Positions 37,934 through 56,110 of a DNA stretch of 64,000 nt are shown here, in pieces (positions within the stretch are counted from its first letter, which is position 1; the number at the start of each line of letters is the position of its first letter). The notes under the pieces are model-generated. The model was given only the letters and a program-made list of their open reading frames with translations. It was not told the origin of the DNA and ran no database searches. A program made the position numbers and the translations under genes. The DNA is from Flavobacteriales bacterium (lineage in GTDB: Bacteria > Bacteroidota > Bacteroidia > Flavobacteriales_F > PHOS-HE28), in assembly GCA_041745875.1 (NCBI GenBank), contig JBGTIB010000306.1:298-64297 (forward strand), read 5' to 3'.

Positions 37934-37938
37934 TAGCC

Positions 37939-40002: not shown

Positions 40003-40088
40003 GTTTCATCTACTACTCACGTGGTATTGATGGTGCTCTACCGCACCCAGTACTTCGTCAACGCATTCACCGCGCAACCGCGATAAAG

Positions 40089-40574
40089 ATGACCAACGCC
40101 ATGCATCGAACATTGCTACTCCTTCCAATCATCCTCGCGTTGCCATCAGCCGCCCAGGAGGTGGTGGGCAGTGGCGGCGGCTATCACAGCGATACCGGTG
40201 TGGCGATCTCCTACACCATCGGCGAGGCCATGATCTCCACTGTGAGCACAGGCGGCACCACCCTCACGCAGGGCTTCCAACAGCCGTGGGCAGCGATCAC
40301 GACATATAATGACGAACCTGCACCGCAGGAGGGTGCGATCACTGTCTACCCCAACCCGGTGCGCCACGTGTTGCATGTCGCCATGGAAGGCATGCCCGAT
40401 GGACATCGCTATGTGCTACATGATGCTGCTGGCCGACAGATCACGGACGGCAACATCGCATCCACCATCACCGACATCAACATGGAGACCTACGCCAGCG
40501 GCGGGTACATCCTGCGCATCCTCGGACCCAAGAACAACACTGCCCGTTCCTTCAAGATCAACGTCACCCACTAA
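40089..40574 (+). CDS. small T9SS C-terminal-sorting-domain protein (161 aa)
   Basis: Signal peptide; ~60-aa mature region ending LTQGFQQP; CTD ITVYPNPVRHVLHV...GGYILRILGPKNNTARSFKINV. Confidence 0.75.
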   Translation: MTNAMHRTLLLLPIILALPSAAQEVVGSGGGYHSDTGVAISYTIGEAMISTVSTGGTTLTQGFQQPWAAITTYNDEPAPQEGAITVYPNPVRHVLHVAMEGMPDGHRYVLHDAAGRQITDGNIASTITDINMETYASGGYILRILGPKNNTARSFKINVTH

Positions 40575-40577
40575 GCC

Positions 40578-43550
40578 ATGAAAAAGACCCTCCTCCTTCT
40601 CACGGTCCTTGCGCTCTCCCTGGGTGCATGGGCGCAAGCGCCGCAGCGCATCAGCTACCAGGCCATCCTGCGCGATGCCGGTGGTGCCATACAACCGAAC
40701 ACCAGCGCCACGCTCGGCCTCGCCGTGCTACAGGGCAGTGCCGGTGGACCTGTGGTGTACAACGAGAACCACGCGGTGACCACCAATGCTTTTGGACTGG
40801 CGAACGTTGCGCTTGGCGGAGGCACCGTGGTCACGGGCACATTCGCCCAGATCGATTGGAGCGATGGACCATATTTCGTGCGCACCAGTGTGAACGGCAC
40901 GCCCATCGGCACAAGTCAGTTGCTTAGCGTGCCTTATGCCCTCTTCGCGGAAACGAGCAACACGCCCGGGCAACAAGGGGAACAGGGCGAACAAGGCATA
41001 CCGGGTGAGCAGGGAATACAAGGCATTCAAGGGCCACAAGGTGACCCGGGACCACAAGGTGAACAGGGCGTACAAGGGCCTCCAGGGGCTGATGGCACGG
41101 GAGTGTCCATCCTGGGCTCACTTCCTGACGAGAACGATCTGCCTGCCACCGGGACAAATGGCGATGCTTACTTGGTGGATGGCGACCTCTATGTATGGAG
41201 TGCCAACACCAGTACATGGGAGAATGTTGGAAATATTCAAGGTCCACAGGGGATCCAGGGCATTCAAGGAATACAAGGAATACAAGGAATACCCGGCACG
41301 GCTGGCACCAATGGCACAAATGGCACGAACGGTATCGACGGAAGAACAGTCCTAAACGGTAACATCAACCCAGCTGCGGGTACTGGAGCCAACGGCGATT
41401 TCTACATCAACACATCTGCGAACATGCTCTTCGGTCCCAAGACAGCAGGTGTTTGGGGAACAGGTGTCTCCTTGGTTGGACCGGCCGGACTTCCAGGTGT
41501 ACCCGGAACCAACGGGACCAATGGTGTTGATGGCGCTCCCGGTACCAATGGTACAAATGGTATAAATGGCGTTGACGGAAGAACAGTGCTTAACGGGAAC
41601 ACCAACCCGGCCCCAGGAACGGGAGCGAACGGTGACTTCTACATCAACACATCTGCGAATACGCTATTCGGCCCCAAGACCGCTGGTGCTTGGGGAACAG
41701 GTGTTTCCTTGGTTGGACCTGCGGGAACGCCAGGCACACCCGGAACCAACGGGACCAATGGAACCGATGGGGCGCCAGGTTCCAATGGGACCAACGGCAC
41801 CAACGGCAAGACCGTGCTGAACGGTGCTGCGGACCCCACTGGCGGGATCGGCACCGATGGCGATTTCTACATCAACACCAGCACGAACTTCATCTTCGGG
41901 CCGAAGACCGGGGGCGCGTGGGGTGCGGGCACTTCGCTGGTGGGACCTGAAGGCCCAGGAGGTGGCGGTAGTGGTTGGGCGCTCACGGGGAATGCAGGAA
42001 CTGTTCCCGCGACGAATTTTGTCGGAACCACGGACGCTCAAGCACTTGCTTTTCGCGTCGAGAACGTTCCTGCTGGAACGATCGCGACGGACTCCGTGAA
42101 CGGAACGACAAGTTTTGGCAAGATGGCCCTGCGTGCCAATACCACCGGCACATTGAACACAGCCATCGGCTTCCAATCACTCCGCCTCAATACGGACGGA
42201 TACTGGAATACATCCGTAGGCTATCAGACGATGTATGGCAATACCAGCGGTTATGGCAACACGGCAACAGGTACCGGGGCTATGCAGAACAACACCGCAG
42301 GCCATAGCAATTCGGCTTACGGGTACCGCGCGCTATACTTCAATACAACAGGCCTCCGTAACGTCGCAATAGGCAGTACCGCCCTATATACCAACAATGC
42401 GGGCTCGAACAATGTGGCCGTCGGATGGAACGCACTTCGTATGAACACCACAGGTTCCTCAAACGTCGCCATCGGTATCCGTGCGCTACAAGAGAATTCG
42501 AACCGCAGCAACCTTGTCGCAATTGGAGATAGCGCCCTATTCAACAATGGTATCGGAGCGGCGCCGATCAATGATATCGACTCACCGAACGAAGCCGCCG
42601 GCAACGTGGCCGTGGGCAGTAAAGCATTGTTCGCAAATACCATAGGCAAGTTCAATACTGCAACGGGTTCCGGGGCATTGGATGCCAATATCAGTGGTGA
42701 TCGAAATACGGGCATGGGCAATGGTGCGTTGAGCGGAAGCGCATTTGCGGACGAATGCACGGCGATCGGTGCCAGCGCACAAGGCAATACCTCGGGTTCC
42801 TTCAACACGTCGGTCGGATATAGGGCCATCCCTGGGGGAACAGGAACTTACAACACTGCTGTGGGCCATAACGCCGGCCAACTGTTCACGACTACGACAT
42901 ACTCGGCCGCACTCGGGCATCTCGCCTTGGGTAACGTGACCTCCGGAGGTTCGAATACCGGGGTTGGCAGCTTTGCTGGGCCATCCTCCGCCACATCGAG
43001 CAACTCCACTTCCTTGGGCTACCAAGCCACTTGCACAGCAGGCAACATGGCCCGTGTGGGCAACACCGCCGTGTCGAGTATCGGGGGATACGCGGGCTGG
43101 ACCACCCTACCCAGTGATGGCCGATTCAAACTAAACGTGGCCACTGACGTGAAGGGATTGGACTTCGTGATGCGGCTGCGACCGGTAACCTACAATGTGG
43201 ACGTGAACAAGATCGCGGCCCATTTGGGAGAGGATACCTACCTGGACGAGAATGGTGTTCGCACACCATTGCCCTTGAACTCCGACATCACTGCGGCGCG
43301 CGATGAGAAATCCGCCATACGATATACCGGTTTTATCGCCCAGGAAGTTGATGCTGCCGCTCAGGCGGTCGGCTTCGATTTCAGTGGAGTGGATAAGTCA
43401 CGCGATGGAGATGACATGCTCGGCCTTCGCTACGCTGAATTCGTTGTCCCCCTTGTAAAAGCCGTGCAAGAACAACAATCCATGATCGAGGCACAACAAA
43501 AGGAGATCGACGAACTGAAAGCACTGGTGCATCAACTACTCAAGCGCTGA
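40578..43550 (+). CDS. collagen-like repeat / tail-fibre-domain protein with C-terminal S74 intramolecular chaperone domain
   Basis: GXY tracts (GQQGEQGEQGIPGEQGIQGIQGPQGDPGPQGEQGVQGPPGADG; GPQGIQGIQGIQGIQGIPGTAGTNGTNGTNGIDG). C-terminal SDGRFKLNV...LRPVTYNVD...GFIAQEVDAAA...GLRYAEFVVPLVKAVQEQQ + coiled coil. Confidence 0.85.
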   Translation: MKKTLLLLTVLALSLGAWAQAPQRISYQAILRDAGGAIQPNTSATLGLAVLQGSAGGPVVYNENHAVTTNAFGLANVALGGGTVVTGTFAQIDWSDGPYFVRTSVNGTPIGTSQLLSVPYALFAETSNTPGQQGEQGEQGIPGEQGIQGIQGPQGDPGPQGEQGVQGPPGADGTGVSILGSLPDENDLPATGTNGDAYLVDGDLYVWSANTSTWENVGNIQGPQGIQGIQGIQGIQGIPGTAGTNGTNGTNGIDGRTVLNGNINPAAGTGANGDFYINTSANMLFGPKTAGVWGTGVSLVGPAGLPGVPGTNGTNGVDGAPGTNGTNGINGVDGRTVLNGNTNPAPGTGANGDFYINTSANTLFGPKTAGAWGTGVSLVGPAGTPGTPGTNGTNGTDGAPGSNGTNGTNGKTVLNGAADPTGGIGTDGDFYINTSTNFIFGPKTGGAWGAGTSLVGPEGPGGGGSGWALTGNAGTVPATNFVGTTDAQALAFRVENVPAGTIATDSVNGTTSFGKMALRANTTGTLNTAIGFQSLRLNTDGYWNTSVGYQTMYGNTSGYGNTATGTGAMQNNTAGHSNSAYGYRALYFNTTGLRNVAIGSTALYTNNAGSNNVAVGWNALRMNTTGSSNVAIGIRALQENSNRSNLVAIGDSALFNNGIGAAPINDIDSPNEAAGNVAVGSKALFANTIGKFNTATGSGALDANISGDRNTGMGNGALSGSAFADECTAIGASAQGNTSGSFNTSVGYRAIPGGTGTYNTAVGHNAGQLFTTTTYSAALGHLALGNVTSGGSNTGVGSFAGPSSATSSNSTSLGYQATCTAGNMARVGNTAVSSIGGYAGWTTLPSDGRFKLNVATDVKGLDFVMRLRPVTYNVDVNKIAAHLGEDTYLDENGVRTPLPLNSDITAARDEKSAIRYTGFIAQEVDAAAQAVGFDFSGVDKSRDGDDMLGLRYAEFVVPLVKAVQEQQSMIEAQQKEIDELKALVHQLLKR

Positions 43551-43844
43551 TCGACATCCGGACCGAACGGGCATCGAAGGTGGATCCTCCTCCTCCGGTG
43601 CCCGTTCATCATTTACACACCGTGCGACCGCAGCACTCCTTCTGTTCCATGGGCTGGGTTGAATTCCGGTACTCATGGATGGGGTCACCCCCCAGCCAGC
43701 TGTACCACCTATGTAGTATTTCAGAAACCCTATCATCATTGGATCTTCGTTGCACTGAACAGCGACCATGCCGCTGAGCAATGAAGATGACGCCTTCTCA
43801 TCAATATGACACACAAGCGTCCTCCATCTCGGAGGAACAGGGCA

Positions 43845-43890
43845 TGTCGGGTTCTTACTTGAACCCGTCCTGGCAGCTGTATTTGCTTCG
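43845..43890 (+). promoter_or_regulatory. conserved bipartite motif copy 1 (TGTCGGGTTyTTACTTG-N20/21-TTGCTTCG)
   Basis: One of five copies; ends 7 nt before the ATG at 43898. Confidence 0.55.
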
Positions 43891-43897
43891 TCGATCC

Positions 43898-45628
43898 ATG
43901 TCGCGGTCCATCCTATTCATTGCGTTCATTGTTGTCTCTCTTCACGTGGAAGCCCAGAGCGTGGGCATCAGCGCGGATGGGGCAGCACCACACGCATCGG
44001 CCCTGCTCGATGTGAACGTGGCCGCATTGGCGGCGAACAACAAGAAGGGCCTGCTTGTGCCGCGCATGAATACCAGCGAACGGGAAGCCATCGCTGATCC
44101 CGCCCAAGGATTGTTGGTATTCGACATCACGCTGAACGAATTCTGGTTCCACGATGGGACCGCCTGGATGGCTGTAGCGGCAACGAGCACGATCTGGTCC
44201 GTTACCGGGAACGCAGGCACCGGGGCCACCGACTTCATCGGCACGAACGCCGGTAGTACAACGCTCGAATTCCGTGCGAACAACGAGCGTGTCGGCTACA
44301 CGGCAGACGGGGTGTCCCGGGTCTCCTTCGGTCATCTGGCCATGCCTCTTGCGACAGGTGTGAACAATACTGCCTTTGGTAAGAACGCTTTACAGAACCT
44401 TGGCACGGGAACGAACAACACGGCGATAGGAACCAATGCATTGAACGCCTTGACCACAGGTGTGTCGAACACCGCCGTGGGCTATCATGCCTTGCGATAT
44501 GCGACCGGATCGCGGAACACCGCGCTGGGCTACAATGCGATGGAGCAGAATACCACCGGTTCGGACAACACGGCGATCGGGCTGAGCGCGTCCCGTTACA
44601 ATCTCATTGGCAGCCGGAACACCGCCGTGGGCAGTGGAGCGCTGGAGAACAACACCAGTTCGGACAATACCGCCGTAGGCTACCAGGCATTGCAAAGCAA
44701 CACCACGGGCGAGTCGAACTCGGCGATGGGCTCGCGGTGCATGGCGAACCAGACAGTGGGGTCGCGGAACACAGCGATGGGCTATCTGGCCATGGAGCTG
44801 AATGTGAGCGGTATTCGCAACTGCGCCATCGGAGCGAGTGCGAGCCGGAACAATCTCACCGGTTCCTACAATGTGGCTTTCGGAAAGGACGCACTACGAT
44901 CGAATCTCAGCTCCTACAATACCGCAAGCGGCATGACCAGTGCCTTCAGTGTCACCACCGGCAGCTACAATACGGCCCTCGGCTATTTCACGTTGATCGC
45001 GGTGACCACAGGCAATTACAATACGGGGATCGGGCCGTTCGCAGGACCCGAGGGGAACTACACCAACACCACGGCCATCGGCAATGCCGCGACGCCAACC
45101 GCCAACAACCGCATCACCATCGGCAGCGTGGCCAACAACAACCTCACCGGTGGCCACGGTACCTGGCAGAATTTCTCCGATGCGCGCTTCAAGAAGAATG
45201 TTCGTTCCGATGTGCCCGGGCTGGACCTCATTCTGCGCCTTCGCCCGGTCACCTACCTCCTTGATGCCGAAGCGATCGAGAAGCGCACGGGTTCCTGGCA
45301 GCGCATGGATACAATGACCACCGGTGACCTTCGGGCCACGTACATGCAAAGGCTCGCCGAGGTTACAAGCGATCGCCAGACCGGATTCATCGCGCAGGAA
45401 GTGGAGGCGGCCGTCGAAGCCATCGGCTATCCGTTCGATGGGGTACATCACCCTGCGGATGACGCCGATCACTATACGCTCGGCTACGAGCAGTTCACCC
45501 TGCCTTTGATCAATGCGGTGAAGGAGCAACAAATGCAGATCGAAGAAATGGAGGCCTTGAACGCCAGGCTACACCAGCGTGTGCAGGAGCTTATCGAGTT
45601 ACGCGCCGAACGAACAGCGAAGCCATGA
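43898..45628 (+). CDS. tail-fibre-domain protein (S74 C-terminal chaperone domain)
   Basis: Signal peptide MSRSILFIAFIVVSLHVEAQ; N-terminal module GISADGAAPHASALLDV...GLLVPRMNTSEREAI..PAQGLLVFD...FWFHDGTAW; NTA.G..AL..NT.G repeats; SDARFKKNV...LRPVTYLLD. Confidence 0.85.
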   Translation: MSRSILFIAFIVVSLHVEAQSVGISADGAAPHASALLDVNVAALAANNKKGLLVPRMNTSEREAIADPAQGLLVFDITLNEFWFHDGTAWMAVAATSTIWSVTGNAGTGATDFIGTNAGSTTLEFRANNERVGYTADGVSRVSFGHLAMPLATGVNNTAFGKNALQNLGTGTNNTAIGTNALNALTTGVSNTAVGYHALRYATGSRNTALGYNAMEQNTTGSDNTAIGLSASRYNLIGSRNTAVGSGALENNTSSDNTAVGYQALQSNTTGESNSAMGSRCMANQTVGSRNTAMGYLAMELNVSGIRNCAIGASASRNNLTGSYNVAFGKDALRSNLSSYNTASGMTSAFSVTTGSYNTALGYFTLIAVTTGNYNTGIGPFAGPEGNYTNTTAIGNAATPTANNRITIGSVANNNLTGGHGTWQNFSDARFKKNVRSDVPGLDLILRLRPVTYLLDAEAIEKRTGSWQRMDTMTTGDLRATYMQRLAEVTSDRQTGFIAQEVEAAVEAIGYPFDGVHHPADDADHYTLGYEQFTLPLINAVKEQQMQIEEMEALNARLHQRVQELIELRAERTAKP

Positions 45629-47373
45629 TGCGCACCTGTTCAGCACTACCGACGCGCTTCGTGCTCGCACTGTTATGGTGCGTGCCGTTCGGCATGAGCG
45701 CTCAAAATGTCGGCATCAGCTTGGATGGGGCCGTCCCGCATGCAAGTGCCCTGCTCGACGTGGATGTGAGCGGATCGCCCGCCAATGGCAAACGCGGTAT
45801 GCTGATACCACGCATGACCACGGCCGAACGCGTGGCCATGCCCGCACCGGCTACCAGCACGCTGGTCTATGACACCACCGCGAACGGCTTCTGGTACTTC
45901 AACGGTATGGCATGGGTCCCCTGGGCACTGGTGGACAATGGATGGCGTACGACCGGCAATGCGGGGCTCACACAAGGGACGCATTTCATCGGCACGACGG
46001 ATGATGCCAACGTACGATTGCGGGTGAACAATGTGCAGGCGGGCCACCTCGCCGATGGCATTACCAGTTTCGGAGCCAATGCGGGCGCCACCACGGGAAC
46101 GGACCACACGGCCTTCGGCTACCAAGCGGCAGCGGGTTTGGATGCATTGAACGAGGTACGGAACACAGCGGTGGGATACCGTGCTGCGCTGAGCGTGACC
46201 GGTACGGCGAATAACACTGTGATAGGCAGCGAAGCTTTGTTGGCGGCAAGCGTGCTGTCATTTGTCAACACGGTGATCGGCCATCGGGCGCTGGCCTCTA
46301 CGGAATATGCCACAGCATGTGTAGCGGTAGGTCACCGTGCATCGGAACTCGCTATCAATATCAGTTCTTCCGCAGTGGTAGGGGCCCAGGCCGGGGCCAA
46401 TGGTACGGTCGATGGGAGCGTAGCCGTCGGCTATCAAGCAGGAATGGCAGGGCTCGACTATGGTCACGCGGTTTTCGGTAGCCGAGCTGCTGGCGCCAGG
46501 GCTTTCGGTGCGAACGCTTCACTTGCGCTCAATACGAATGTCGTAGCGAATGCCTTCGGTTACAGCGCGCTCGCCAGCACCACTACCGGGGACAGGAATG
46601 TCGCGGTAGGGTATACCGCCCTAGTAGCCAACACCACCGGTTCGTACAACACGGCCATCGGCGCACGTGCCATGATAAGTTCCACAGGCAGTTTCAATTC
46701 GGCCACAGGTTACCTGGCGCTGGGTAACCTGATCAGTGGTACGAACAACACAGCGCTGGGTGCGCTCGCAGGTCCGACCAACACAGCGTTGAGCTTCACC
46801 AGTGCCATCGGGTACAACAGTGTGCCGACCGCCAACGGAAGGATGGTATTCGGTACCACCTTGAGCACCAACCTCACCGGAGGATATGGCGCCTGGCAGA
46901 ACCCATCCGATGCACGCTTCAAGCGCGATGTGCGTACCGATGTGCCGGGCATCGAGTTCATCAGGCTGCTCAGGCCGGTGACATACAACCTGGATGCACC
47001 GGCGATCGAGCATTTCACAGGCGCGGAAGCGCGACTGGCCAGCTTGGAGGACCCCGTTCCGTTACAAGAGCATCGACAAGGATGGCACGCGGTCGCCAAT
47101 GCACGGTGCACAGGTCTGCTTGCACAGGAAGTAGCAGCGGCATTGGACAGTTTGGGGGCTGAACTGGACATCGTTCACCGGCCTGCGAACGAACAAGATC
47201 ACTACACGCTTTCCTATGCGGCGCTTGTGGTACCGCTGGTGCGAACCGTACAACAGCAGCAGGAACGGATAGCAGCGCTGCGCACATCCAACCGCGCCTT
47301 GATCGAGCAGCTCGAAGCCCTTGAACGGCATGAGGTGGAGACGCACTGGTCAGCACAGCGCAGGGAACAGTAG
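45625..47373 (+). CDS. tail-fibre-domain protein (S74 C-terminal chaperone domain)
   Basis: ATGA overlap with the upstream gene; same N-terminal module (GISLDGAVPHASALLDV...GMLIPRMTTAERVAM); SDARFKRDV...LRPVTYNLD. Confidence 0.85.
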   Translation: MMRTCSALPTRFVLALLWCVPFGMSAQNVGISLDGAVPHASALLDVDVSGSPANGKRGMLIPRMTTAERVAMPAPATSTLVYDTTANGFWYFNGMAWVPWALVDNGWRTTGNAGLTQGTHFIGTTDDANVRLRVNNVQAGHLADGITSFGANAGATTGTDHTAFGYQAAAGLDALNEVRNTAVGYRAALSVTGTANNTVIGSEALLAASVLSFVNTVIGHRALASTEYATACVAVGHRASELAINISSSAVVGAQAGANGTVDGSVAVGYQAGMAGLDYGHAVFGSRAAGARAFGANASLALNTNVVANAFGYSALASTTTGDRNVAVGYTALVANTTGSYNTAIGARAMISSTGSFNSATGYLALGNLISGTNNTALGALAGPTNTALSFTSAIGYNSVPTANGRMVFGTTLSTNLTGGYGAWQNPSDARFKRDVRTDVPGIEFIRLLRPVTYNLDAPAIEHFTGAEARLASLEDPVPLQEHRQGWHAVANARCTGLLAQEVAAALDSLGAELDIVHRPANEQDHYTLSYAALVVPLVRTVQQQQERIAALRTSNRALIEQLEALERHEVETHWSAQRREQ

Positions 47374-47374
47374 C

Positions 47375-49153
47375 ATGCAACGTAAGACCTTCAACCTGGT
47401 ATTGGCGATCGGCGTAAGCTGCTTGACCGGCGTTACGACCAATGCGCAGGTCGGCATCAACACCAATGGGGGCGCACCCGCTGCCTCCGCCATGCTCGAT
47501 GTGGATGCAAGCGCGTTGCCCGCCAATGGGAAGCGGGGCTTGCTACTGCCGCGGATGACCGCCGGAGAGCGTGAAGCGATCCCAGCTCCGGCAACCGGAC
47601 TTCTCGTGTATGAGACGACCACCAATGCCTATTGGTACTTCAATGGAACGCTCTGGATGCAATTATTCGGATCGTACACGGACTGGCAGTTCCCAGGCAA
47701 CACGGGCATCGTGCCGGGCACGCATTTCCTGGGCACCAACACTGCCGTACCGCTGGAATTCCGGCGCAACAATATGCGCAGCGCCTGGGTCTCGTCCGCA
47801 GGAACGAATACCGCATGGGGTTACCTGGCGCTGGCAGTGAACTCAGGCACGAACAATACGGCGCTCGGATCCAGGGCGCTGGCTGCCAGCACGACCGGTT
47901 CGAGGAACACGGCCGTGGGTTCGAATGCCCTGGCCAACAGTGGTAGCTCGAACAGTGTGGCTGTTGGCGCGAACGCCCTACGTGTTGGAACATCCGTGAT
48001 CGCCCAGACCGCAGTAGGGGCCCGCGCCATGGAGAACTATACAAGCGGTGCGGGCAATACGGCCGTTGGGTCGAACGCACTCTTGGTGGCAACCCCCACG
48101 AATTGCACTGCGGTTGGGCAGATCGCACTGCAATATTCGACGGGTGCGAACAACACAGTATTCGGCAATCAAACGATGATCGCCAATACGAATGGCTCGG
48201 GGAATACCGCGTTCGGATCTTTGGCCTTATCCAGCCTTGCGTCCGGCTCCAACAATACGCTCATAGGCCGTATGAATTATTTCACTTCTGGTAGCGACAA
48301 CACCAGCGTCGGGGCCTTTTACTATTTGACAAGTGGTACCGGGAATTGTGGTATTGGAGGGGGTGGGGGAGACAATACCGGCAACTACAACACGCTAATG
48401 GGTTCCGGGTCACACCTGGACAATGATGATGGCGCTTACGGTACGGCGTTGGGTGCAGGAACGCTGGGGTATATGCCGAACACCCCCTCATCAACGGACT
48501 TTTGCACGGCCGCAGGTTATGTTGCCTTTACCGGCATCACGGCAAACAATATGACGGCCATCGGATACAACGCCATGGCACCTGGCGGTAACGTGATCCG
48601 CTTCGGTAACGCGGCCAACAACACCGGCCTTATTGGCGGCTTCGGGGCGTGGCAGAACCTTAGCGATGCGCGATACAAGAAGAACGTGCGAGAGAACGTG
48701 CCTGGACTGGACTTCATCCTCCGGCTGCGCCCGGTCACCTATCGCTTTGATGTGAACGCTTACGACACGTTCACTGGTCTCGCCGATCACATGACCCCCG
48801 AACGGAGTTCTGAAGAGCTTGCCACTTACACTACCCACGCAAATGCCTCGTCTGACATCCGCCGCATCGGCTTCATCGCACAGGAAGTGGAAAGCGCCGC
48901 CGAATCACTGGGCTTCGAGTTCTCCGGGGTGCATCGACCCATGGACGACAAGGACCACTACACCATCGGCTACGAACAGTTCGTGGTGCCCCTGGTGAAA
49001 GCGGTACAGGAGCAGCAGGAGCAGCTTGACACCATGCTCGTTGAGTTGAACGCAGCGATGCTCCGTGTGGAACTACTAAGCGCCGACATACGCGAGGGCG
49101 TTACACTTCCCGCAATGCCGCCGCGCACTTCGGCAAACTCCCAACGGCCATGA
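47375..49153 (+). CDS. tail-fibre-domain protein (S74 C-terminal chaperone domain)
   Basis: Start at MQRKTFNLVLAIGVSCLTGVTTNAQ, 1 nt after the previous stop; same N-terminal module; SDARYKKNV...LRPVTYRFD. Confidence 0.85.
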   Translation: MQRKTFNLVLAIGVSCLTGVTTNAQVGINTNGGAPAASAMLDVDASALPANGKRGLLLPRMTAGEREAIPAPATGLLVYETTTNAYWYFNGTLWMQLFGSYTDWQFPGNTGIVPGTHFLGTNTAVPLEFRRNNMRSAWVSSAGTNTAWGYLALAVNSGTNNTALGSRALAASTTGSRNTAVGSNALANSGSSNSVAVGANALRVGTSVIAQTAVGARAMENYTSGAGNTAVGSNALLVATPTNCTAVGQIALQYSTGANNTVFGNQTMIANTNGSGNTAFGSLALSSLASGSNNTLIGRMNYFTSGSDNTSVGAFYYLTSGTGNCGIGGGGGDNTGNYNTLMGSGSHLDNDDGAYGTALGAGTLGYMPNTPSSTDFCTAAGYVAFTGITANNMTAIGYNAMAPGGNVIRFGNAANNTGLIGGFGAWQNLSDARYKKNVRENVPGLDFILRLRPVTYRFDVNAYDTFTGLADHMTPERSSEELATYTTHANASSDIRRIGFIAQEVESAAESLGFEFSGVHRPMDDKDHYTIGYEQFVVPLVKAVQEQQEQLDTMLVELNAAMLRVELLSADIREGVTLPAMPPRTSANSQRP

Positions 49154-50670
49154 AATTCCCGGGACTACTCTCTGCCTTGTTATGTGCTCCGGCAGCATTC
49201 GGGCAACTGTGTTCGGCAGAGGGTGTTGTGATCTCCATTGCCACAGGTACCGTGCTCACCGTGGAAGGTGACATCCTGCTGAACACCAGCGCCACCTGTG
49301 CCAATCAGGGCGAGTTGCGCGTGGCCGGCGATTGGACCAATGCCAGCGGTGGTTCCGTGATGACCGCCGCCAGTGCCGGTGTGGTCCACTTGTACGATGG
49401 CCCCCAAACGATCGATGGTACTTCCGTCACCGACTTCCGCAACCTGCGCATCAGTGGCGGGGACAAAACCCTTGAACAGGATGCAGTGGTCGGTCTGCCT
49501 GGTTCAGCCACTGGAACACTGGACCTCGATGGGGCCACGCTGCTGCTGAACGGACGCACGTTCTCCGTGTTCAATGCCGCCGCGACCGCTGTGGTCGACA
49601 ATGGGGGCAGCGTACGCAGCGAGAGCGTCGATCTGGCAAGCCGCTTCCAGTGGGCACTTGGCGCGGATGTGGGCGAGCATCGCATCCCTTTCAGCACGGC
49701 GGCGGGTACTGCTTTGCCATTCGCCTTTACGCCAGTAGCGCCCTACGCCGCCAACACTTTGTTGAGCGTTGCCACCTATCCCACAGCACCGGACAACACA
49801 CCCTACGCGGTGACCCCGAACCAGCAGGTGTTGCACATCATGGGCTTCGAGGTGGTGGACAACAGCCCCAATACCGTGGACCGTTTCTGGCTGGTGGACC
49901 TGCCCAACGGAAACTTCACTGGCGAGTTGCTCCTGAGCTACACGCCGCCGGAGGATGCGACCATGGGCCCCGGCCCTGTGCGCGCCCAGCGCTGGCTTGA
50001 GAGTGCAGGTACCTGGCAACCGCCACTGCCCGGGCAAAGCAACCCCGGCTTGCGCGAAGCCTTGGTACCAGCAGTGCTGTTCAGCGAAAGCGTGAACCCC
50101 GTGAATGAGCACATCTGGGCAATGGCCTACGCCAATTTGCCCCTGCCTATTGAACTGATCGCCTTCGACGCCATCGCCGTGGACAACGCCCATGTCCATT
50201 GCCTGTGGACCACCGCCAGCGAACGTGACAACGACCACTTTACCGTGGAGCGCAGCCGCGATGCGGTGCTGTTCGAGGAGGTGGGACAGGTACCAGGTGC
50301 CGGTCATTCCAATACCCCCTTGCATTACACCTTCAACGACATGAGGCCCTATCCGGGCGTGAGCTACTACCGCCTGCGCCAGACGGACTTCGATGGTACC
50401 GCGACGTGGTCACAGGCAGTCCCCGTTCACTTTACGACAACAGTTGGCGTAAGCGTGTACCCCAACCCGAACAATGGCGCGTTCACCATACATCGGCAGC
50501 AGGCGGACCTTCCGCTGTCCTTGCAACTGACCGACGGCCTGGGCAGGCTTGTACACAGTTGGAACATGCCCCAGGGAGTGGACCGGCAGTCCGTACAGTT
50601 CGACCTGGCCAGCGGTGCTTACACCCTCCGTTGGGACAACGAGCAACTGAAGCTGGTCATCAGCCGGTGA
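49150..50670 (+). CDS. T9SS C-terminal-sorting-domain protein
   Basis: ATGA overlap with the upstream fibre gene; signal peptide; LPIELIAFDA...VERSRDAVLFEEVG...SYYRLRQTDFDG module; CTD VSVYPNPNNGAFTI. Confidence 0.8.
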   Translation: MKFPGLLSALLCAPAAFGQLCSAEGVVISIATGTVLTVEGDILLNTSATCANQGELRVAGDWTNASGGSVMTAASAGVVHLYDGPQTIDGTSVTDFRNLRISGGDKTLEQDAVVGLPGSATGTLDLDGATLLLNGRTFSVFNAAATAVVDNGGSVRSESVDLASRFQWALGADVGEHRIPFSTAAGTALPFAFTPVAPYAANTLLSVATYPTAPDNTPYAVTPNQQVLHIMGFEVVDNSPNTVDRFWLVDLPNGNFTGELLLSYTPPEDATMGPGPVRAQRWLESAGTWQPPLPGQSNPGLREALVPAVLFSESVNPVNEHIWAMAYANLPLPIELIAFDAIAVDNAHVHCLWTTASERDNDHFTVERSRDAVLFEEVGQVPGAGHSNTPLHYTFNDMRPYPGVSYYRLRQTDFDGTATWSQAVPVHFTTTVGVSVYPNPNNGAFTIHRQQADLPLSLQLTDGLGRLVHSWNMPQGVDRQSVQFDLASGAYTLRWDNEQLKLVISR

Positions 50671-50725
50671 GGAGCTGTTGACCCCGCCGCCTTCTCAAGG
50701 ACCCGCACGCCAGTGCGCCACTTCA

Positions 50726-50770
50726 TGTCGGGTTTTTACTTGCCGAACGCCCTCGCATCTTCTTGCTTCG
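50726..50770 (+). promoter_or_regulatory. conserved bipartite motif copy 2
   Basis: tgtcgggtttttacttg-N20-ttgcttcg, 44 nt upstream of the AraC ATG. Confidence 0.55.
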
Positions 50771-50814
50771 GAGATCTCTTCAGACCCCCGCCTAACCCGA
50801 ACGTGGTATTTCAA

Positions 50815-51738
50815 ATGCCGCCGCAGCCCCCAACCTTCGGTGTACCGAACGGTAGCCCCATGGATGCCTGGTCCGAAGCGATGCCCAAATCCGAAAGCCA
50901 ACTTCAAGCGCCACCCCTGTTCGCCGACTACGGTGAGTACATCCCCGTTGCGAACGATCCCTTGTTCGGCGTGGTGCAGCGTATGGCGCATATGCATTTC
51001 CTGGCTCCGCTGCCACCGGAGCAGCTGGCACCGGACAGCTACATCAAGTTGGCATTGATCCTGGATGGTGAGCCACACTACTTCGATGGCCAAGGCGAAC
51101 CCCTGGACTGGCACGATGGCTTTGCCGGTCATGTCCCCCCTCGCAAAGGCATTGTGACAAAAAGTGATGGACCTGTCCGCTGCCTGATGGCAAACTTCTA
51201 TCCGAGTGCCTTCTTCCAACTGTTCGGAGGCCCGGTAGATCGGTTCAATGGTCTCATGATACCACCCGAACAACTGCTGGGCGATGGTGCTGCGACGCTC
51301 TATGCGGGAGTGCGCGCCACCCATGACCCACGGATAGCACTCGATGTGGTGAAGTGTTTCCTGCGCGAACTGATCACAGAACAGGCACCCGCGCAACCGT
51401 CACCCATCGCGCGACTCGAACATTACATCCGCGAACGCAAAGGCATGGTGCTGGTGAACGAGCTCGCCGAGCTGGCAGGTCTTTCCGAACGCCAGCTTCA
51501 GCGCCGCTTCAAGGAGGAGGTGGGTCTTTCGCCCAAAGCCTTCTGTTCGGTGGTGCGCTTCAACCACGTGTACAGCGAAATGAAACGCACTGGAAAACTG
51601 GACCTTGATGTAGCCCTGGCCTGTGGCTACTTCGATGAGAGCCACATGATGAAGGATCTCTCCTACTTTCTGGGTAAGGCGCCAAAACGTTTCGTATCGC
51701 TCATTCGCCCCATGGTGGACCTGAACCTGGGGCACTGA
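50815..51738 (+). CDS. AraC/XylS family transcriptional regulator (copy A)
   Basis: C-terminal dual HTH (VNELAELAGLSERQLQRRFKEEVGLSPKAFCSVVRFNHVY...ACGYFDESHMMKDLSYFLGKAP). Start set at MPPQPP because the paralog's upstream extension is in a different frame. Confidence 0.8.
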   Translation: MPPQPPTFGVPNGSPMDAWSEAMPKSESQLQAPPLFADYGEYIPVANDPLFGVVQRMAHMHFLAPLPPEQLAPDSYIKLALILDGEPHYFDGQGEPLDWHDGFAGHVPPRKGIVTKSDGPVRCLMANFYPSAFFQLFGGPVDRFNGLMIPPEQLLGDGAATLYAGVRATHDPRIALDVVKCFLRELITEQAPAQPSPIARLEHYIRERKGMVLVNELAELAGLSERQLQRRFKEEVGLSPKAFCSVVRFNHVYSEMKRTGKLDLDVALACGYFDESHMMKDLSYFLGKAPKRFVSLIRPMVDLNLGH

Positions 51739-51759
51739 TAACAAATGCTTCATACGCCG

Positions 51760-51804
51760 TGTCGGGTTCTTACTTGAACGGGGCGGTCGCCTGCTATTGC
51801 TTCG
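51760..51804 (+). promoter_or_regulatory. conserved bipartite motif copy 3
   Basis: tgtcgggttcttacttg-N20-ttgcttcg, begins 21 nt after the AraC stop and ends 105 nt upstream of the 51910 ATG. Confidence 0.55.
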
Positions 51805-51909
51805 AGGTCCGAACCGATAAGACCGTCATACCACACGCATATCACTGAGCACGCGGCACCATAATTCAAATTCCCCTTGTAGCAAGGTCATTGATCCGCG
51901 TTGCACTCC

Positions 51910-54831
51910 ATGAAGCGCTTCCTTCTCCTTCCATTGTTGATGGTCCTTTCATTCGGGGGATACACCCAAGGAGTAGGGATCAACAACCCCACCCCGGATC
52001 CTTCCGCCTTGCTTGACGTGAACAGCACAACCAAGGGCGTGCTCCTTTCACGGATGACCTCTGTGCAACGCGTGGCCATTCCTGCACCTGCCACTGGACT
52101 ACTTGTGTTCGATAGCACACTGAACGAGTTCTGGTACTTCGACGGCACCGCATGGGTGCCTTTACTATCGGCCACGAAAGGATGGGCCTTGAACGGCAAT
52201 GCCGGAACGGTTGATGGCACGCACTTCCTGGGCACTACGGATAACATTCCCCTGAGCTTTCGGGTGAATGGGGTGCAAGCCGGTCGCATTGACCACTTGA
52301 TATCAAATAGCTACTACGGCTTTAATGCCGGAGCAGGAACTACGACAGGGTACGGCAATACCGCGAACGGGCAAGCCGCATTACAAAGCAACACGACCGG
52401 ATATCGGAACGTTGCCATCGGCAACTATGCGCTCAGTGCCAACACGACGGGTTTCTGGAACACTGCGACCGGAGTGAGTGCTTTGGCATCCAATACAACA
52501 GGTAGGGACAATGTAGCCTATGGTGGTGGTGGCCTCTTCAACAATACGAACGGCAACTTCAACACCGCCGTTGGAGGGGTGGCCCTTCGTCAAAACACGG
52601 AAGGTTCCAGCAACACGGCGATCGGCCTCAGCGCACTCTACAACAATGTCGCAGGGTCCAAGGCTACCGCCATTGGAGAATTCGCCATGTTCAATTCCAA
52701 CAATACGACCACCGCTTTCATCAATCAGAATGTGGCCATCGGAGCTTACGCATTATATGGGTCGACCACCATAGCTAATAATACCGGAAACAACAATACG
52801 GCCGTTGGGTATGAGACCCTTCGGAACAATTCCTCCGGCAGGGGAAATACGGCTATGGGTACCGTAGCATTACGTGCGAACACCATCGGCAATTGGAATA
52901 CCGCGGTGGGCGATAGCGCGTTGTTCGCCAACACTTCCGGGATCAACAACACTGCCAATGGGGCGTTCGCGCTCAGGACCAATTCAACAGGCGCCCAGAA
53001 CACAGCGGTCGGAAGGGATGCTTTGCTTGTCAATACGACTGGTTCTTTGAACGAAGCCTTTGGGTACCGTGCCCTCTACAGCAACACCACCGGCAATAGG
53101 AACGCGGCAATGGGAGACAGTGCCTTGTTCTACAATACGACCGGATCCGACAACGCGGCTTTCGGTTCCAAGACGTTGCTTTCCAACACCACAGGCCGGT
53201 TCAACACAGCCAGTGGTAGGGAAGCAATGAGGTCCAACACTACCGGCAGCTCCAATGCAGCTCTTGGCTACCGGGCCATGTACAGCAATACCAGCGGCTC
53301 AGATAACGTGGCCGTGGGAGATAGCGCCCTCCTCGCCAACACGATCGCAAGCTACAATACCGCCATTGGCAAACATGCATTGCGGTCGAACTCTGCAAAC
53401 TACAACACCGGGGTGGGCTACCAGGCTTTGTTCGCGAACACCTTCGGTTATATGAATAGTGCTTTCGGAGGCCAGGCGCTGCGGAACAACATTTCCGGGG
53501 TCTTCAATACGGCAGTGGGTTACAGCTCTCTGAACCAGAACACCCTGGGCGGTGATAACACGGCGATCGGATACTCCAGCATGGGTCAGAATACAACTGG
53601 AAACCGGAACGCCGCGACCGGTTATTGGGCTTTGACCAAGAACACCACCGGTGCATACAACACGGCCACTGGAGCGGAGGCCATGCGGGAAAATACTTCC
53701 GGAGAGGACAACGTCGCTCAGGGTTACCAGGCCTTATGGTCCAATAGCACGGGAAGCAATAACACCGCAGCCGGTAGACGCGCATTGGCAACTAATCGCA
53801 CCGGATCTTCGGCGACCGCTATAGGTTACGGTGCGATGGAGAACAGTAATTCCAGTACGACACCATTCACCAATTACAGCGTGGCTATTGGTTTCGAGGC
53901 CCTGAGGGGGTCGGCTTTAGCAGCCTCCAATACGGGCAACTATAATTCCGCTGTTGGCTATCAGGCCCTGTATTCCAATTCCATGGGCTACGACAACGTG
54001 GCCATGGGAGTGGAGGCCATGTATGCCAATACCACCGGAAATCGAAATAGTGCCATTGGCCGAAGTGCGCTGTACAGCAATACCACTGGCTACGGTAATA
54101 GCGCCATGGGATTTGCTGCACTCACTTTCAACACGACGGGATATGGGAATACCGCTTCAGGTCGCGGGGCATTGTACGCGAACACGACGGGCGTTTCCAA
54201 TACGGCCGTTGGGCTTACTGCACTCTACACCAACACCACGGGCAATTACAACACCGCGATCGGCAACGCGGTGGATGTGGACGCCACCAACCGGGAGAAT
54301 ACGGTGACCATTGGTGGCACCGGCAATCTGGCACTGGGCGGAAGCAACCGCGTGCGTATCGGCAACAATGCCATGACCTCCATCGGTGGCCAGGTAGGTT
54401 TCGCTGCGATCTCTGACGAACGCACCAAGACCAATGTGTTGGAGAATGTTCCGGGGCTTGCGTTCATTACACGCCTCAAGCCGGTCACATACAAATTCAG
54501 TATCGCACAAAGCAATGCGGTGCAGGGGAAAATGGATACGGTCAGTTGGGCGGGTAAGTATGACATCGAGCAGATCCGTTTCACCGGCTTCCTTGCGCAG
54601 CAGGTGGAGCAAGCTGCCATGGACTCAGGGTACGACTTCAGTGGTGTGGACAAACCAGAGGACGGGCAAGGGCTTTGGGGCTTACGCTACGGGGAGTTCA
54701 CAGTACCCCTGGTAAAAGCGGTACAGGAAATGAACGACACCGTGCAGACGCAACAGATCCTGATCGTGCAATTGCAGGAAGAGTTGAAGGCCCTGCGCCA
54801 AGAACTGCAACAACTCCAGAACGGCCGGTGA
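51910..54831 (+). CDS. tail-fibre-domain protein with long 17-residue repeat shaft and S74 C-terminal chaperone domain
   Basis: Signal peptide MKRFLLLPLLMVLSFGGYTQ; N-terminal module GINNPTPDPSALLDV..GVLLSRMTSVQRVAIPAPATGLLVFD...FWYFDGTAW; dozens of NTA.G..AL..NTTG.. units; SDERTKTNV...LKPVTYKFS...VPLVKAVQE. Confidence 0.85.
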   Translation: MKRFLLLPLLMVLSFGGYTQGVGINNPTPDPSALLDVNSTTKGVLLSRMTSVQRVAIPAPATGLLVFDSTLNEFWYFDGTAWVPLLSATKGWALNGNAGTVDGTHFLGTTDNIPLSFRVNGVQAGRIDHLISNSYYGFNAGAGTTTGYGNTANGQAALQSNTTGYRNVAIGNYALSANTTGFWNTATGVSALASNTTGRDNVAYGGGGLFNNTNGNFNTAVGGVALRQNTEGSSNTAIGLSALYNNVAGSKATAIGEFAMFNSNNTTTAFINQNVAIGAYALYGSTTIANNTGNNNTAVGYETLRNNSSGRGNTAMGTVALRANTIGNWNTAVGDSALFANTSGINNTANGAFALRTNSTGAQNTAVGRDALLVNTTGSLNEAFGYRALYSNTTGNRNAAMGDSALFYNTTGSDNAAFGSKTLLSNTTGRFNTASGREAMRSNTTGSSNAALGYRAMYSNTSGSDNVAVGDSALLANTIASYNTAIGKHALRSNSANYNTGVGYQALFANTFGYMNSAFGGQALRNNISGVFNTAVGYSSLNQNTLGGDNTAIGYSSMGQNTTGNRNAATGYWALTKNTTGAYNTATGAEAMRENTSGEDNVAQGYQALWSNSTGSNNTAAGRRALATNRTGSSATAIGYGAMENSNSSTTPFTNYSVAIGFEALRGSALAASNTGNYNSAVGYQALYSNSMGYDNVAMGVEAMYANTTGNRNSAIGRSALYSNTTGYGNSAMGFAALTFNTTGYGNTASGRGALYANTTGVSNTAVGLTALYTNTTGNYNTAIGNAVDVDATNRENTVTIGGTGNLALGGSNRVRIGNNAMTSIGGQVGFAAISDERTKTNVLENVPGLAFITRLKPVTYKFSIAQSNAVQGKMDTVSWAGKYDIEQIRFTGFLAQQVEQAAMDSGYDFSGVDKPEDGQGLWGLRYGEFTVPLVKAVQEMNDTVQTQQILIVQLQEELKALRQELQQLQNGR

Positions 54832-55031
54832 GGTGGTTCACCAGCATGGCCTTCGGTGTATACAGGCAATAGGTCGACGGTCGATCGTGAACCATATATT
54901 GCTGAATTGCCCCGATCTGGAAATGATCTTATTGCGTAGATCCGCCATCCATGGCCTACTTCCTACGTGGCATTTTGAGCCTCGCGGACCGACCCGATCT
55001 TCGCCATTTAGTGCGCAGCGTTGAATGACCA

Positions 55032-55076
55032 TGTCGGGTTTTTACTTGCGCCATGTTCTCGCATTTTCTTGGTTCG
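55032..55076 (+). promoter_or_regulatory. conserved bipartite motif copy 4
   Basis: tgtcgggtttttacttg-N20-ttggttcg, 43 nt upstream of the AraC ATG. Confidence 0.5.
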
Positions 55077-55119
55077 AAGATCTCTTCGACCTGCGCCTAA
55101 CCCGAACGTGGTATTTCAA

Positions 55120-56043
55120 ATGCCGCCGCACCTCCCAACCTTCGGTGTTCCGAACGGCAGCCCCAAGGATGCCCGTCCCGAAGCGATGTCCGAGACCGAT
55201 CACGAACTTCAAGCGCCCCCGATCTTCGCCGACTACGGTGAGTATATCCCCACTGCGAACGAGCCCTTGTTCGGCATCGTGCAGCGCATGGCACAAATGC
55301 ACTTCCTGGCGCCGCTGCCACCCGAGCAATTGGCACCGGACAGCTACATCAAGCTGGCATTGATCCCGGAAGGGGAGCCACACTACTTCGATGGCCAGGG
55401 CGAACCCATGGATTGGCACGATGGGGTCGCAGGCCATGTACCGCCACGCAAAGGCATTGTTGCTACGAGCAATGGACCAGTACGCTGCCTGATGGTCAAC
55501 TTCTATCCAAGCGCATTCCACCGGCTTTTCGGTGGTCCGGTGGATCGGTTCAATGGGAGGATGGTACCACCAGAACAGGTGCTGGGCACTGCTGCAGCCA
55601 CGCTCTATGAGAATGTTCGCGCGACGATCCATGCACAGTCGACGATCGATGTCGTTAAGAATTTCCTGATCGACCTGGTCGCCAGGAAGGCCCCCGCTCC
55701 ACCATCATCCATTGCGCGTCTGGAGCATTACATCCGCGAACGAAAGGGCAAGGTGCTGGTGAATGAGCTCTCTGAACTTGCCGGACTTTCCGAGCGCCAA
55801 CTCCAGCGGCGCTTCAAGGAGGAGATCGGCCTTTCGCCCAAAGCCTTCTGTTCGGTGGTGCGCTTCAACCACGTGTACAGCGAAATGAAACGCATTGGAA
55901 AATTGGACCTGGACGTGGCCATTTCCTGTGGCTATTTTGACGAGAGCCACATGATGAAGGATCTCTCCTACTTTCTGGGTAAGGCACCAAAACGTTTCGT
56001 ATCGCTGATCCGCCCCATGGTGGACCTGAACCTGGGGCATTGA
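55120..56043 (+). CDS. AraC/XylS family transcriptional regulator (copy B, close paralog of 50815)
   Basis: Collinear and highly similar to copy A from MPP(Q/H)(P/L)PTFGVPNGSP to the identical C-terminus FVSLIRPMVDLNLGH. Confidence 0.8.
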   Translation: MPPHLPTFGVPNGSPKDARPEAMSETDHELQAPPIFADYGEYIPTANEPLFGIVQRMAQMHFLAPLPPEQLAPDSYIKLALIPEGEPHYFDGQGEPMDWHDGVAGHVPPRKGIVATSNGPVRCLMVNFYPSAFHRLFGGPVDRFNGRMVPPEQVLGTAAATLYENVRATIHAQSTIDVVKNFLIDLVARKAPAPPSSIARLEHYIRERKGKVLVNELSELAGLSERQLQRRFKEEIGLSPKAFCSVVRFNHVYSEMKRIGKLDLDVAISCGYFDESHMMKDLSYFLGKAPKRFVSLIRPMVDLNLGH

Positions 56044-56064
56044 TAACAAATGCTTCACACGCCA

Positions 56065-56110
56065 TGTCGGGTTCTTACTTGGACCAACCGCGCCGTCATT
56101 GTTGCTTGCG
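56065..56110 (+). promoter_or_regulatory. conserved bipartite motif copy 5
   Basis: tgtcgggttcttacttg-N20-ttgcttgcg, begins 21 nt after the AraC stop and lies upstream of the FGE-like array. Confidence 0.5.

Follow-up and report, generated by a model that had tools for sequence, protein, structure and literature searches.

The DNA analysed here is a 64,000-nucleotide (nt) stretch of a Flavobacteriales contig (JBGTIB010000306.1, assembly GCA_041745875.1; GC content ~59%), hereafter the window, and this study concerns five paralogous plus-strand genes in it, A to E, whose predicted secreted products all end in a chaperone module of the phage tail-fibre type. Gene A spans positions 40578–43550 (990 amino acids, aa), B 43898–45628 (576 aa), C 45625–47373 (582 aa), D 47375–49153 (592 aa) and E 51910–54831 (973 aa). 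B, C and D occupy positions 1, 2 and 3 of a triad, in which the start of C overlaps the stop of B in an ATGA at 45625 and a 1-nt gap at 47374 separates C from D. The stop of D overlaps, in a further ATGA at 49150, the start of T9_506 (49150–50670, plus strand), which encodes a 506-aa secreted protein with a type IX secretion system (T9SS) type A C-terminal domain (CTD). Upstream of A lies a small plus-strand gene, g0 (40089–40574; 161 aa), encoding a signal peptide, an N-part of ~55 aa with the motif LTQGFQQPW and a T9SS type A CTD. The gene coordinates, overlaps and gap are as an earlier note on this DNA, made from the sequence alone, had given them, and its description of the two flanking proteins as T9SS-sorted holds by a small excess over the cut-offs: for g0 and T9_506, respectively, PF18962 scores 27.7 and 27.4 bits (cut-off 27) and TIGR04183 24.1 and 23.7 bits (cut-off 23). 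For B, D and E, the mechanical list of open reading frames (ORFs) has longer upstream starts; the ATG starts were adopted because they place the signal peptide at the N-terminus. The longer ORF of B would contain, at 43845, a copy of a 17-nt box described below.

Judged by its sequence, the C-terminal module of A–E is an S74 intramolecular chaperone. Pfam PF13884 (Peptidase_S74) matches the five proteins, in order, at 30.5, 37.7, 25.6, 40.7 and 30.3 bits (E = 4.5e-7, 2.5e-9, 1.5e-5, 2.9e-10 and 5.1e-7), all above its gathering score of 22 bits, so that the note's claim of one shared S74 module in five proteins stands. The motif S-D-x-R-x-K occurs exactly once in each protein, as SDGRFK in A, SDARFK in both B and C, SDARYK in D and SDERTK in E. 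Its serine is residue 846 of A, 427 of B, 428 of C, 430 of D and 835 of E, encoded at 43113, 45176, 46906, 48662 and 54412, and is followed five residues downstream by lysine, exactly where the note had placed the pair. Both residues (S430 and K435 of D) are invariant across a 57-sequence alignment. Cleavage at the serine is predicted to yield C-terminal fragments of 145 (A), 150 (B), 155 (C), 163 (D) and 139 aa (E). The self-cleavage mechanism is said to be established for the K1F endosialidase, by Schulz and colleagues in 2010, and for MYRF in separate studies. An auto-proteolytic mechanism common to phage S74 proteins and MYRF is described in PMC3828593. Beyond the chaperone itself, the PHROG family phrog_4636, 'tail spike protein', matches the five proteins at E-values of 1e-46 to 1e-110 (A, 1.4e-62) over both the repeats and the C-terminus, which indicates that the whole stalk-plus-chaperone module is homologous to the phage fibre module. 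The paralogues are 34–44% identical, with pairwise E-values of 1e-46 to 1e-122, so their likeness is not due to chance.

Each protein starts with a predicted Sec signal peptide, as the note had read it, in which a charged n-region precedes a hydrophobic core and, at the predicted cleavage site, a small residue stands before Gln (AWA|QA, VEA|QS, MSA|QN, TNA|QV and GYT|QG in A to E). A Gln after the signal peptidase I site is reportedly typical of Bacteroidetes, the 'Q-rule' of Bochtler and colleagues (2018). B to E share a common layout in which the signal peptide is followed by an N-terminal domain of ~75 aa (the N-domain; Q.VGI...P..SALLDV....KG.L.PRMT...R.AI..PA.GLLV.D....FWYF.G..W), a short neck segment (W...GN.G....F.GT.D..L.F..NN), a stalk of 17-residue repeats (NTA.G..AL..NTTG.., ~7 to 33 motif copies), the S74 domain and a helical tail. 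The repeats of C are more degenerate, its layout being otherwise that of B, and the stalk of E contains ~33 repeats. A differs at its N-terminal end: its signal peptide (residues 1–20) is followed by an unannotated domain of ~105 aa (N2, residues ~21–127; AQAPQRISYQAILRD...SQLLSVPYALFA) unlike the N-domain of B–E, then by a collagen region (~128–460) of Gly-X-Y tracts with interspersed ~80-aa repeats, and finally by a neck (WALTGNAG..F.GT.D) and 17-residue repeats like those of B–E, S74 and a coiled-coil tail. The Pfam Collagen match to this region (E = 3.8e-18) settles in the affirmative the collagen check that the note had suggested.

No enzymatic domain was found in A–E with Pfam, NCBIfam or PHROGs, and this bears on whether S74 here matures depolymerase- or bacteriocin-like proteins that are released and work at a distance from the cell. 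Release would be in keeping with endosialidase tailspikes, the best-known bearers of S74, and with the freeing of some T9SS cargo into the medium; however, the passenger is a simple stalk of 17-residue repeats, and left-handed beta-helix enzymes are matched weakly in Foldseek, in the manner typical of repeat geometry. We therefore regard release as very improbable. The five proteins also contain no T9SS CTD (PF18962, TIGR04183), as the note had remarked, and no other known outer-membrane translocation signal by Pfam or NCBIfam.

An AlphaFold2 monomer of D, built from the 57-sequence alignment, has a mean predicted local distance difference test (pLDDT) score of 79.8, and its best Foldseek match in the PDB is the intramolecular chaperone auto-processing (ICA) domain of MyRF (7dc3; probability 1.0, TMt 0.62), with phage chaperones next (3gw6 and 3gud), those of K1F and GA-1 being among the top matches, all at weak E-values. 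Among predicted viral structures, 85 match the same model at E ≤ 1e-3 (best E, 2.5e-16); many of these are named 'intramolecular chaperone auto-processing domain containing protein', and one is the tail spike of Bacillus phage Mater. The N-domain modelled alone (pLDDT 79.7) has no significant Foldseek match (best E = 0.21), and its weak structural neighbours are all trimeric modules from phage or collagen trimerisation proteins.

A–E are not isolated cases. At least 5,674 proteins in a protein collection match D at E ≤ 1e-5; in NCBI they go by 'tail fiber domain-containing protein', and many bear the JGI name 'trimeric autotransporter adhesin'. Precomputed Pfam annotation, rather than a model match of our own, assigns PF26696 (PTL_trimer) together with PF13884 to most of these relatives, including D (P0001) and B (P0024) themselves. 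By elimination, PF26696 would correspond to the N-terminal domain of the B–E type, since relatives that lack the N-domain also lack that annotation. With one genome scanned per species, family members turned up in at least 553 loci, almost all titled Bacteroidota (Flavobacteriales, Chitinophagales, Saprospiraceae, Cytophagales and Bacteroidales). The sole non-Bacteroidota title among the 80 genome loci listed (loci are numbered L, relatives P) is that of L061, on a contig titled as a Bordetella parapertussis metagenome-assembled genome (MAG), probably a binning error. Three other loci, L041, L040 and L080, belong to culturable relatives, namely Flavobacterium agri, Ginsengibacter hankyongi and Dawidia soli.

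Hidden Markov models (HMMs) built for the N-domain, neck, repeats and C-terminal domain were applied to the fetched loci, in which ORFs were called mechanically. The N-domain was found in 93 of the 132 S74-bearing ORFs of cellular loci, and S-D-x-R-x-K is kept in 120 of these 132. Of 116 N-domains in relatives, 110 begin directly after a hydrophobic core, at A|Q(N/S)(I/V)(G/A)IN. Protein lengths range from about 450 (shortest, 454) to more than 1,400 aa, with highly variable repeat number. In P0020, P0022, P0026 and P0068, the unit of N-domain, neck and repeats recurs two or three times per chain, which suggests that the PTL_trimer-type domain serves as an internal fibre module as well as an N-terminal cap. 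Large arrays also occur, with up to 11 family ORFs within 17 kb in L025 (a 17.3-kb locus), six consecutive ones in L010 and a further large array in L012; these combine full proteins with ORFs that consist of the N-domain only.

Literature searches that combined S74 with Bacteroidetes or T9SS, or that used PF26696/PTL_trimer or 'tail fiber domain-containing protein', found no study of the family and no paper joining S74 with T9SS or with Bacteroidetes surface proteins; the S74 literature that was found concerns phages, giant viruses, polinton-like viruses, fibres of extracellular contractile injection systems (eCIS) and MYRF only. Since databases contain the family in quantity under generic names, the genes as such are not new, and the note overrated their novelty: thousands are on record and Pfam already has PTL_trimer. 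Their biology, by contrast, appears unstudied.

The phage-like module raises the question of whether A–E are the orphan tail-fibre genes of a prophage, tailocin or eCIS, with products that would be built onto a phage-like particle before leaving the cytoplasm. The strong PHROG matches to tail spike and virion structural families, the structural matches to phage S74 proteins and the S74-fold eCIS fibres reported in Bacteroidota such as Microscilla marina (PMC12923769) would all fit such an origin, and the window leaves out ~3.6 kb of the contig as well as everything else in the genome. However, the predicted signal peptides on all five proteins are incompatible with cytoplasmic assembly, and the genomic surroundings are cellular. 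Among ~50 ORFs across the 64 kb, Pfam and NCBIfam identified no capsid, portal, terminase, tape-measure, baseplate, lysis or integrase family and, in general scans that did not include profiles of eCIS baseplate-attachment proteins (eBAP), no eCIS sheath, tube or baseplate family; the families that did match have cellular functions only. In the closest complete genome, the 3.85-Mb Flavobacteriales MAG CP065018.1 (L002), three overlapping S74 genes (585, 582 and 583 aa) lie between housekeeping genes, in the order TetR and resistance-nodulation-division (RND) efflux operon, AraC regulator, S74 trio, class II tRNA synthetase; the same RND operon is present in the window at 17158–24224. When 130 immediate neighbours from 79 other loci were classified with Pfam, Por_Secre_tail was counted 26 times, HATPase_c 12, Response_reg 7, LytTR 4 and CHU_C, AraC-type and GerE 2 each, so most annotated neighbours are T9SS cargo, two-component or AraC regulators, and no phage hallmark family is among the common neighbour families.

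Viral relatives point the same way. The IMG/VR collection holds at least 286 of them; we fetched 80 loci with 98 S74 ORFs and inspected ~40 complete N-termini. These viral proteins share the repeats and S74 with the cellular ones, yet our HMMs found the N-domain or neck in 0 of the 98, none of the ~40 complete N-termini has a signal-peptide-like start (they look like phage fibre adaptors, MATYVNDLRLKEIATG... and others), and none of the 80 loci contains a CTD or g0 gene. The full architecture is absent from isolated phages, whose matches cover at most 33% of D. Because the viral relatives lack the N-domain, neck, signal peptide and CTD or g0 neighbours, the cellular proteins are a distinct branch, in which a phage-type stalk and chaperone are combined with a Sec signal and cell-specific N-terminal modules. 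An origin as prophage, tailocin or eCIS leftovers is thus largely refuted, and we give it hardly any weight; the note's statements that the 64 kb contain no phage gene and that the array is cellular rather than a prophage remnant are borne out by the window, CP065018.1, the neighbour census and the viral relatives alike.

How proteins without a CTD would cross the outer membrane had been left unexplained in the note. A lead is given by a strong gene-neighbourhood link to T9SS CTD proteins and by occasional domain fusions. In 28 of 82 cellular loci, a CTD gene lies on the same strand within 300 nt of an S74 gene, often overlapping it or only a few nt apart; 33 CTD genes are adjacent in this sense, compared with 46 in the remaining ~1,130 kb of flanks, an enrichment measured against local flanks rather than whole genomes. 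T9_506 has full-length homologues in L009 and L016, immediately upstream of type-1 S74 genes, and in L006, in the vicinity of such genes. In 4 of the 132 relatives and in protein P0051, the S74 coiled-coil tail is followed within the chain by a T9SS type A CTD (L078 9884–11701, L071 1146–2903, L044 8636–12181 and L063 3–2108). In such fusions, self-cleavage at the S74 serine would part the fibre from its own sorting signal, which puts the order of cleavage and export at issue.

The g0 family comprises ~140 homologues of ~156–165 aa, each with a signal peptide, an N-part of ~55 aa and a CTD. All 12 g0-like ORFs in the cellular loci adjoin an ORF with an N2 domain, eleven directly upstream of it and one directly downstream. 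Two of the N2 proteins paired in this way lack S74, indicating that the pairing is with the N2 domain. Two further loci, found from distant g0 homologues and surrounded by housekeeping genes, repeat the association: a Chitinophagales genome has g0, a 153-aa gene and a 912-aa S74 gene, and a Crocinitomicaceae genome has g0, a 521-aa S74 gene and a CHU_C protein. Another g0 homologue, P0230, comes from an assembly full of frameshifts, and its surroundings were set aside for that reason. Type A CTD cargo of Porphyromonas gingivalis is described, in PMC8545088 and PMC4804311, as cleaved after export and linked to anionic lipopolysaccharide. From this precedent, and from gene association only, it is reasonable to infer that g0 would be anchored at the surface as an adaptor for A's N2 end; T9_506 after D, for example, and further CTD neighbours may serve B–D on the same ground. 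As a separate observation, g0 and A are in the same reading frame, parted by the stop and one codon (TAA GCC ATG, 40572–40580), and read-through of the g0 stop would hypothetically fuse the CTD-bearing protein to the A precursor.

The same data bear on whether the fibres might instead remain in the periplasm or be retained at the outer membrane, exported by Sec and folded by S74, with their CTD neighbours merely co-regulated. A–E themselves have neither a CTD nor another known outer-membrane translocation signal, two thirds of the loci have no adjacent CTD gene, and a folded trimeric fibre would be an awkward T9SS substrate. Set against this, the architecture, with its phage-fibre-like repeats and collagen, resembles that of adhesins and receptor-binding proteins, and we know of no periplasmic role for proteins of such adhesin-like architecture. 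The highly variable repeat number is as expected of exposed, diversifying proteins, and the five CTD fusions and the strict g0–N2 gene pairing also speak against retention. On balance, retention seems to us improbable.

The triad formed by B, C and D is itself conserved. A tree and an identity matrix place the three genes in three orthologous groups whose order is kept in four genomes (the window, L002, L005 and L006), with 50–69% identity within a position and 30–46% between positions. The genes overlap by 4 nt or sit 1 nt apart, and the distance from the mature N-terminus to the cleavage serine is 399–408 residues in the nine members measured. Kept order, tight spacing and equal length, in a family of otherwise variable lengths, fit three fibres that are needed together or, more speculatively, a single heterotrimeric fibre; we know of no precedent for a heterotrimeric S74-chaperoned fibre. 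In L005, a long-read MAG, the position-2 gene is split (8243–10001) into a 154-aa N-domain ORF and a 481-aa remainder, by either a frameshift error or pseudogene formation. Programmed inversion or shufflon-type variation, considered in the light of PMC9881135, was ruled out, as the paralogues all lie on one strand and no recombinase is present.

The note's description of the set as regulated is supported by two AraC genes, a repeated box and a recurring kinase/regulator pair. The 17-nt box, TGTCGGGTTYTTACTTG, has five exact copies in the window, all on the plus strand, where 0.15 are expected. The first copy (43845–43861, TGTCGGGTTCTTACTTG) lies 37 nt upstream of the B start codon, and the others lie upstream of AraC1 (50726–50742), of E (51760–51776), of AraC2 (55032–55048) and of a cluster of genes with formylglycine-generating enzyme (FGE)-sulfatase-like products (56065–56081). 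One further exact copy is located between the AraC gene and the first S74 gene of CP065018.1. When aligned, the copies are followed by ~21 variable nt and then yTTGsTTCG. The box was also considered as an RNA element and rejected as such: it shows no covariation and only a 5-bp invariant hairpin, and no Rfam family matches anywhere in the window. It is therefore read as DNA, a probable promoter/operator common to one regulon, which is probably under the control of the AraC proteins. AraC1 (50815–51738, plus strand; HTH_18 and HTH_AraC) and AraC2 (55120–56043, plus strand; AraC family) have mechanical ORFs from 50713 and 55021, with ATG 50815 and ATG 55120 as their likely starts. They are 60–64% identical (AraC1, 64%) to the AraC protein that precedes the triad in CP065018.1. 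Further upstream, at 24422–29123 (plus strand), Pfam identifies two tetratricopeptide repeat (TPR)/HisKA_3 histidine kinases and a LuxR-type response regulator; a TPR-kinase/LuxR pair recurs beside S74 genes in L006, L052, L067, L069, L078 and L081, with LuxR identities of 50–59%. Scans of 39800–56200 for sigma-70 promoters and intrinsic terminators, which are ill-suited to Bacteroidota promoters, found sites no more often than in shuffled sequence.

A second short motif, (A/C)ACGTGGTATT, occurs in the window at 40017–40030, 50803–50815, 55108–55120 and 56137–56150, just upstream of g0, of both likely AraC starts and of the FGE-like cluster, and a variant, AAGTGGTATT, is found upstream of the first S74 gene of CP065018.1 (~6390–6403 in L002). 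This motif may be part of a promoter or ribosome-binding region. The FGE-like cluster consists of four tandem paralogous plus-strand genes (56297–62698) for secreted proteins of ~510–530 aa, of which at least three share the segment ANNIQVTNTTL.DNTGS.V...FD.SWENSWRG after the signal peptide and three match the FGE-sulfatase domain; no NCBIfam model matches any of the four at E ≤ 0.01. Since the fifth box copy precedes it, the cluster may belong to the same regulon as the fibre genes.

Collectively, the S74 identity, stalk homology, cellular context, CTD links and box argue for a cellular, regulated fibre family with a phage-type stalk and chaperone. We consider it probable, at roughly 0.7, that A–E represent a very large, almost entirely Bacteroidota family of Sec-exported, fibre-forming proteins that combine a phage-type stalk with S74, are displayed in a T9SS-linked manner and are regulated by AraC proteins. 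In the mechanism that we propose, Sec would export each chain unfolded and signal peptidase I would cut before Gln, as the sequence features suggest. In the ATP-free periplasm, three S74 domains would associate and nucleate folding of the stalk. S74 would then cut itself off at the serine of S-D-x-R-x-K by means of the Ser-Lys dyad, freeing a fragment of 139–163 aa (~15 kDa) and leaving a mature fibre of ~400 residues (B–D) or ~810–825 residues (A and E). Homology and motifs speak for both of these steps. Gene association and the rare fusions suggest that the fibres would reach, or attach to, the cell surface via co-encoded T9SS cargo partners, with g0 as the putative partner of A, docking to its N2 domain. 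Expression would be controlled by the AraC regulators through the shared 17-nt promoter/operator box, and probably by the TPR-kinase/LuxR system too. In short, we infer that A–E trimerise, cleave themselves, take a T9SS-dependent route and act at the cell surface, most likely in adhesion or surface recognition. A more elaborate picture, in which these are a hitherto undescribed class of Bacteroidota surface fibres that fold in the periplasm with a phage-derived, ATP-independent chaperone and are carried (by piggy-back export) or anchored by T9SS via small CTD adaptors (g0–N2), with the translationally coupled B, C and D possibly forming one heterotrimer, strikes us as rather doubtful.

Several points weigh against the proposed T9SS-displayed fibre family. 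The proposal draws on sequence, homology, context and gene association. The signal peptides were assessed by eye and with a simple hydrophobic-core test. All structure models are monomers; the matches to 7dc3, 3gw6 and 3gud have probabilities of 0.8–1.0 but E-values of at least 0.02, with the whole-protein monomer as query, and PDB sequence searches with D, E and the 57-sequence profile matched nothing useful. Only about one third of the loci have an adjacent CTD gene and g0 accompanies only 12 of 22 N2 proteins, so a T9SS partner is not obligatory. These genomes have many CTD genes, and surface-protein genes may be enriched in the flanks themselves. Periplasmic S74 cleavage would sever a fused CTD before export, which complicates the T9SS route, and we know of no piggy-back export through T9SS.

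A–E show the sequence features tested for the S74 family and lack the features that define virion tail fibres, trimeric autotransporters, T9SS cargo and eCIS fibres. Phage fibres and tailspikes (K1F endosialidase, GA-1 neck appendage, T5 L-shaped fibre) have the same S74 S-D-x-R-x-K after a repetitive stalk; their stalk repeats are homologous to those of A–E (phrog_4636, phrog_23837 and phrog_6002), whose structures match viral S74 proteins. However, phage fibres carry a virion-attachment domain where A–E have a Sec signal peptide and cell-specific N-terminal domains, and A–E are chromosomal, with no phage context and in association with T9SS cargo genes and transcription regulators, the related trio being flanked by housekeeping genes. 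MYRF/MrfA likewise puts this auto-cleaving, trimerising domain to cellular rather than viral use, 7dc3 being the best structural match in the PDB, but it is eukaryotic, frees a transcription factor from the membrane, has no repeat stalk and differs in topology. The S74-fold eCIS fibres, for example those of Microscilla marina (PMC12923769), also occur in Bacteroidota and are cell-encoded and S74-chaperoned, whereas they have eBAP N-termini in place of signal peptides, are encoded in or near eCIS clusters and assemble in the cytoplasm.

Among secreted fibres, type Vc trimeric autotransporters (YadA, Hia, CbpF) also have a stalk of short-period Asn/Gly/Ala-rich repeats; trimerisation would in both cases be driven from the C-terminal end, and the repeats of the D model weakly resemble the CbpF head, together with left-handed beta-helices, in Foldseek searches of the PDB (weak E-values). 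The autotransporters nevertheless end in a beta-barrel anchor, whereas A–E end in S74 and a coiled coil. No YadA family matches A–E, with Pfam at E < 0.01 or with NCBIfam, and the YadA head repeat has a period of ~14 residues, compared with 17 in A–E. T9SS type A cargo shares with A–E the Sec signal peptide and the occurrence among secreted or surface proteins of Bacteroidota, the difference being that A–E lack the CTD. The collagen-like proteins Scl1/Scl2 and Lcl resemble A in its long Gly-X-Y tracts, and partial NCBIfam matches to SclB and Lcl were obtained; however, A reaches 82 bits, from the collagen region alone, against an SclB cut-off of 325; an LPXTG anchor is absent, and trimerisation of A would come from S74.

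Upstream of g0 and tightly spaced with g0–A is a plus-strand block (29183–40002) encoding a 584-aa protein, a 2330-aa secreted giant and a 687-aa fn3 protein. From its sequence the 584-aa protein may be an outer-membrane beta-barrel; it has no family match. The giant has a weak TANFOR domain (E = 6.3e-10, below cut-off). L052, another Flavobacteriales MAG, has kept the order giant, fn3 protein, g0, A-like protein as one block. Two more plus-strand genes for T9SS type A CTD proteins, at 11740–13419 and 13687–15177, encode SBBP/beta-propeller-like repeats unrelated to the fibre genes, and thus the region is rich in T9SS cargo. The window as a whole contains the TetR-associated RND efflux operon, T9SS cargo, a glutamate-synthase-like enzyme, methyltransferases and TonB-like proteins, in addition to the two TPR/HisKA_3 kinases, the LuxR regulator, the two AraC regulators and the FGE-sulfatase-like proteins.

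In phages the S74 chaperone is textbook material, and MYRF is its one famous eukaryotic co-option. Bacterial chromosomes nonetheless hold thousands of genes for Sec-exported proteins that contain S74 and, if the proposed fibre family is real, S74 would be a general way to fold trimeric fibres outside the cytoplasm, where ATP is absent. The finding bears on the question of whether proteins without a CTD can use T9SS through partners, for which the g0–N2 pairing, the CTD fusions and the AraC proteins with their 17-nt box are testable entry points. The closeness of the stalk to phage fibre repeats also makes one ask whether genes pass between host surface proteins and the receptor-binding proteins of phages. 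Finally, the family is abundant in Flavobacteriales, Chitinophagales, Saprospiraceae and their kin from sludge, soil and water, where adhesion, floc formation and predation depend on surface structures.

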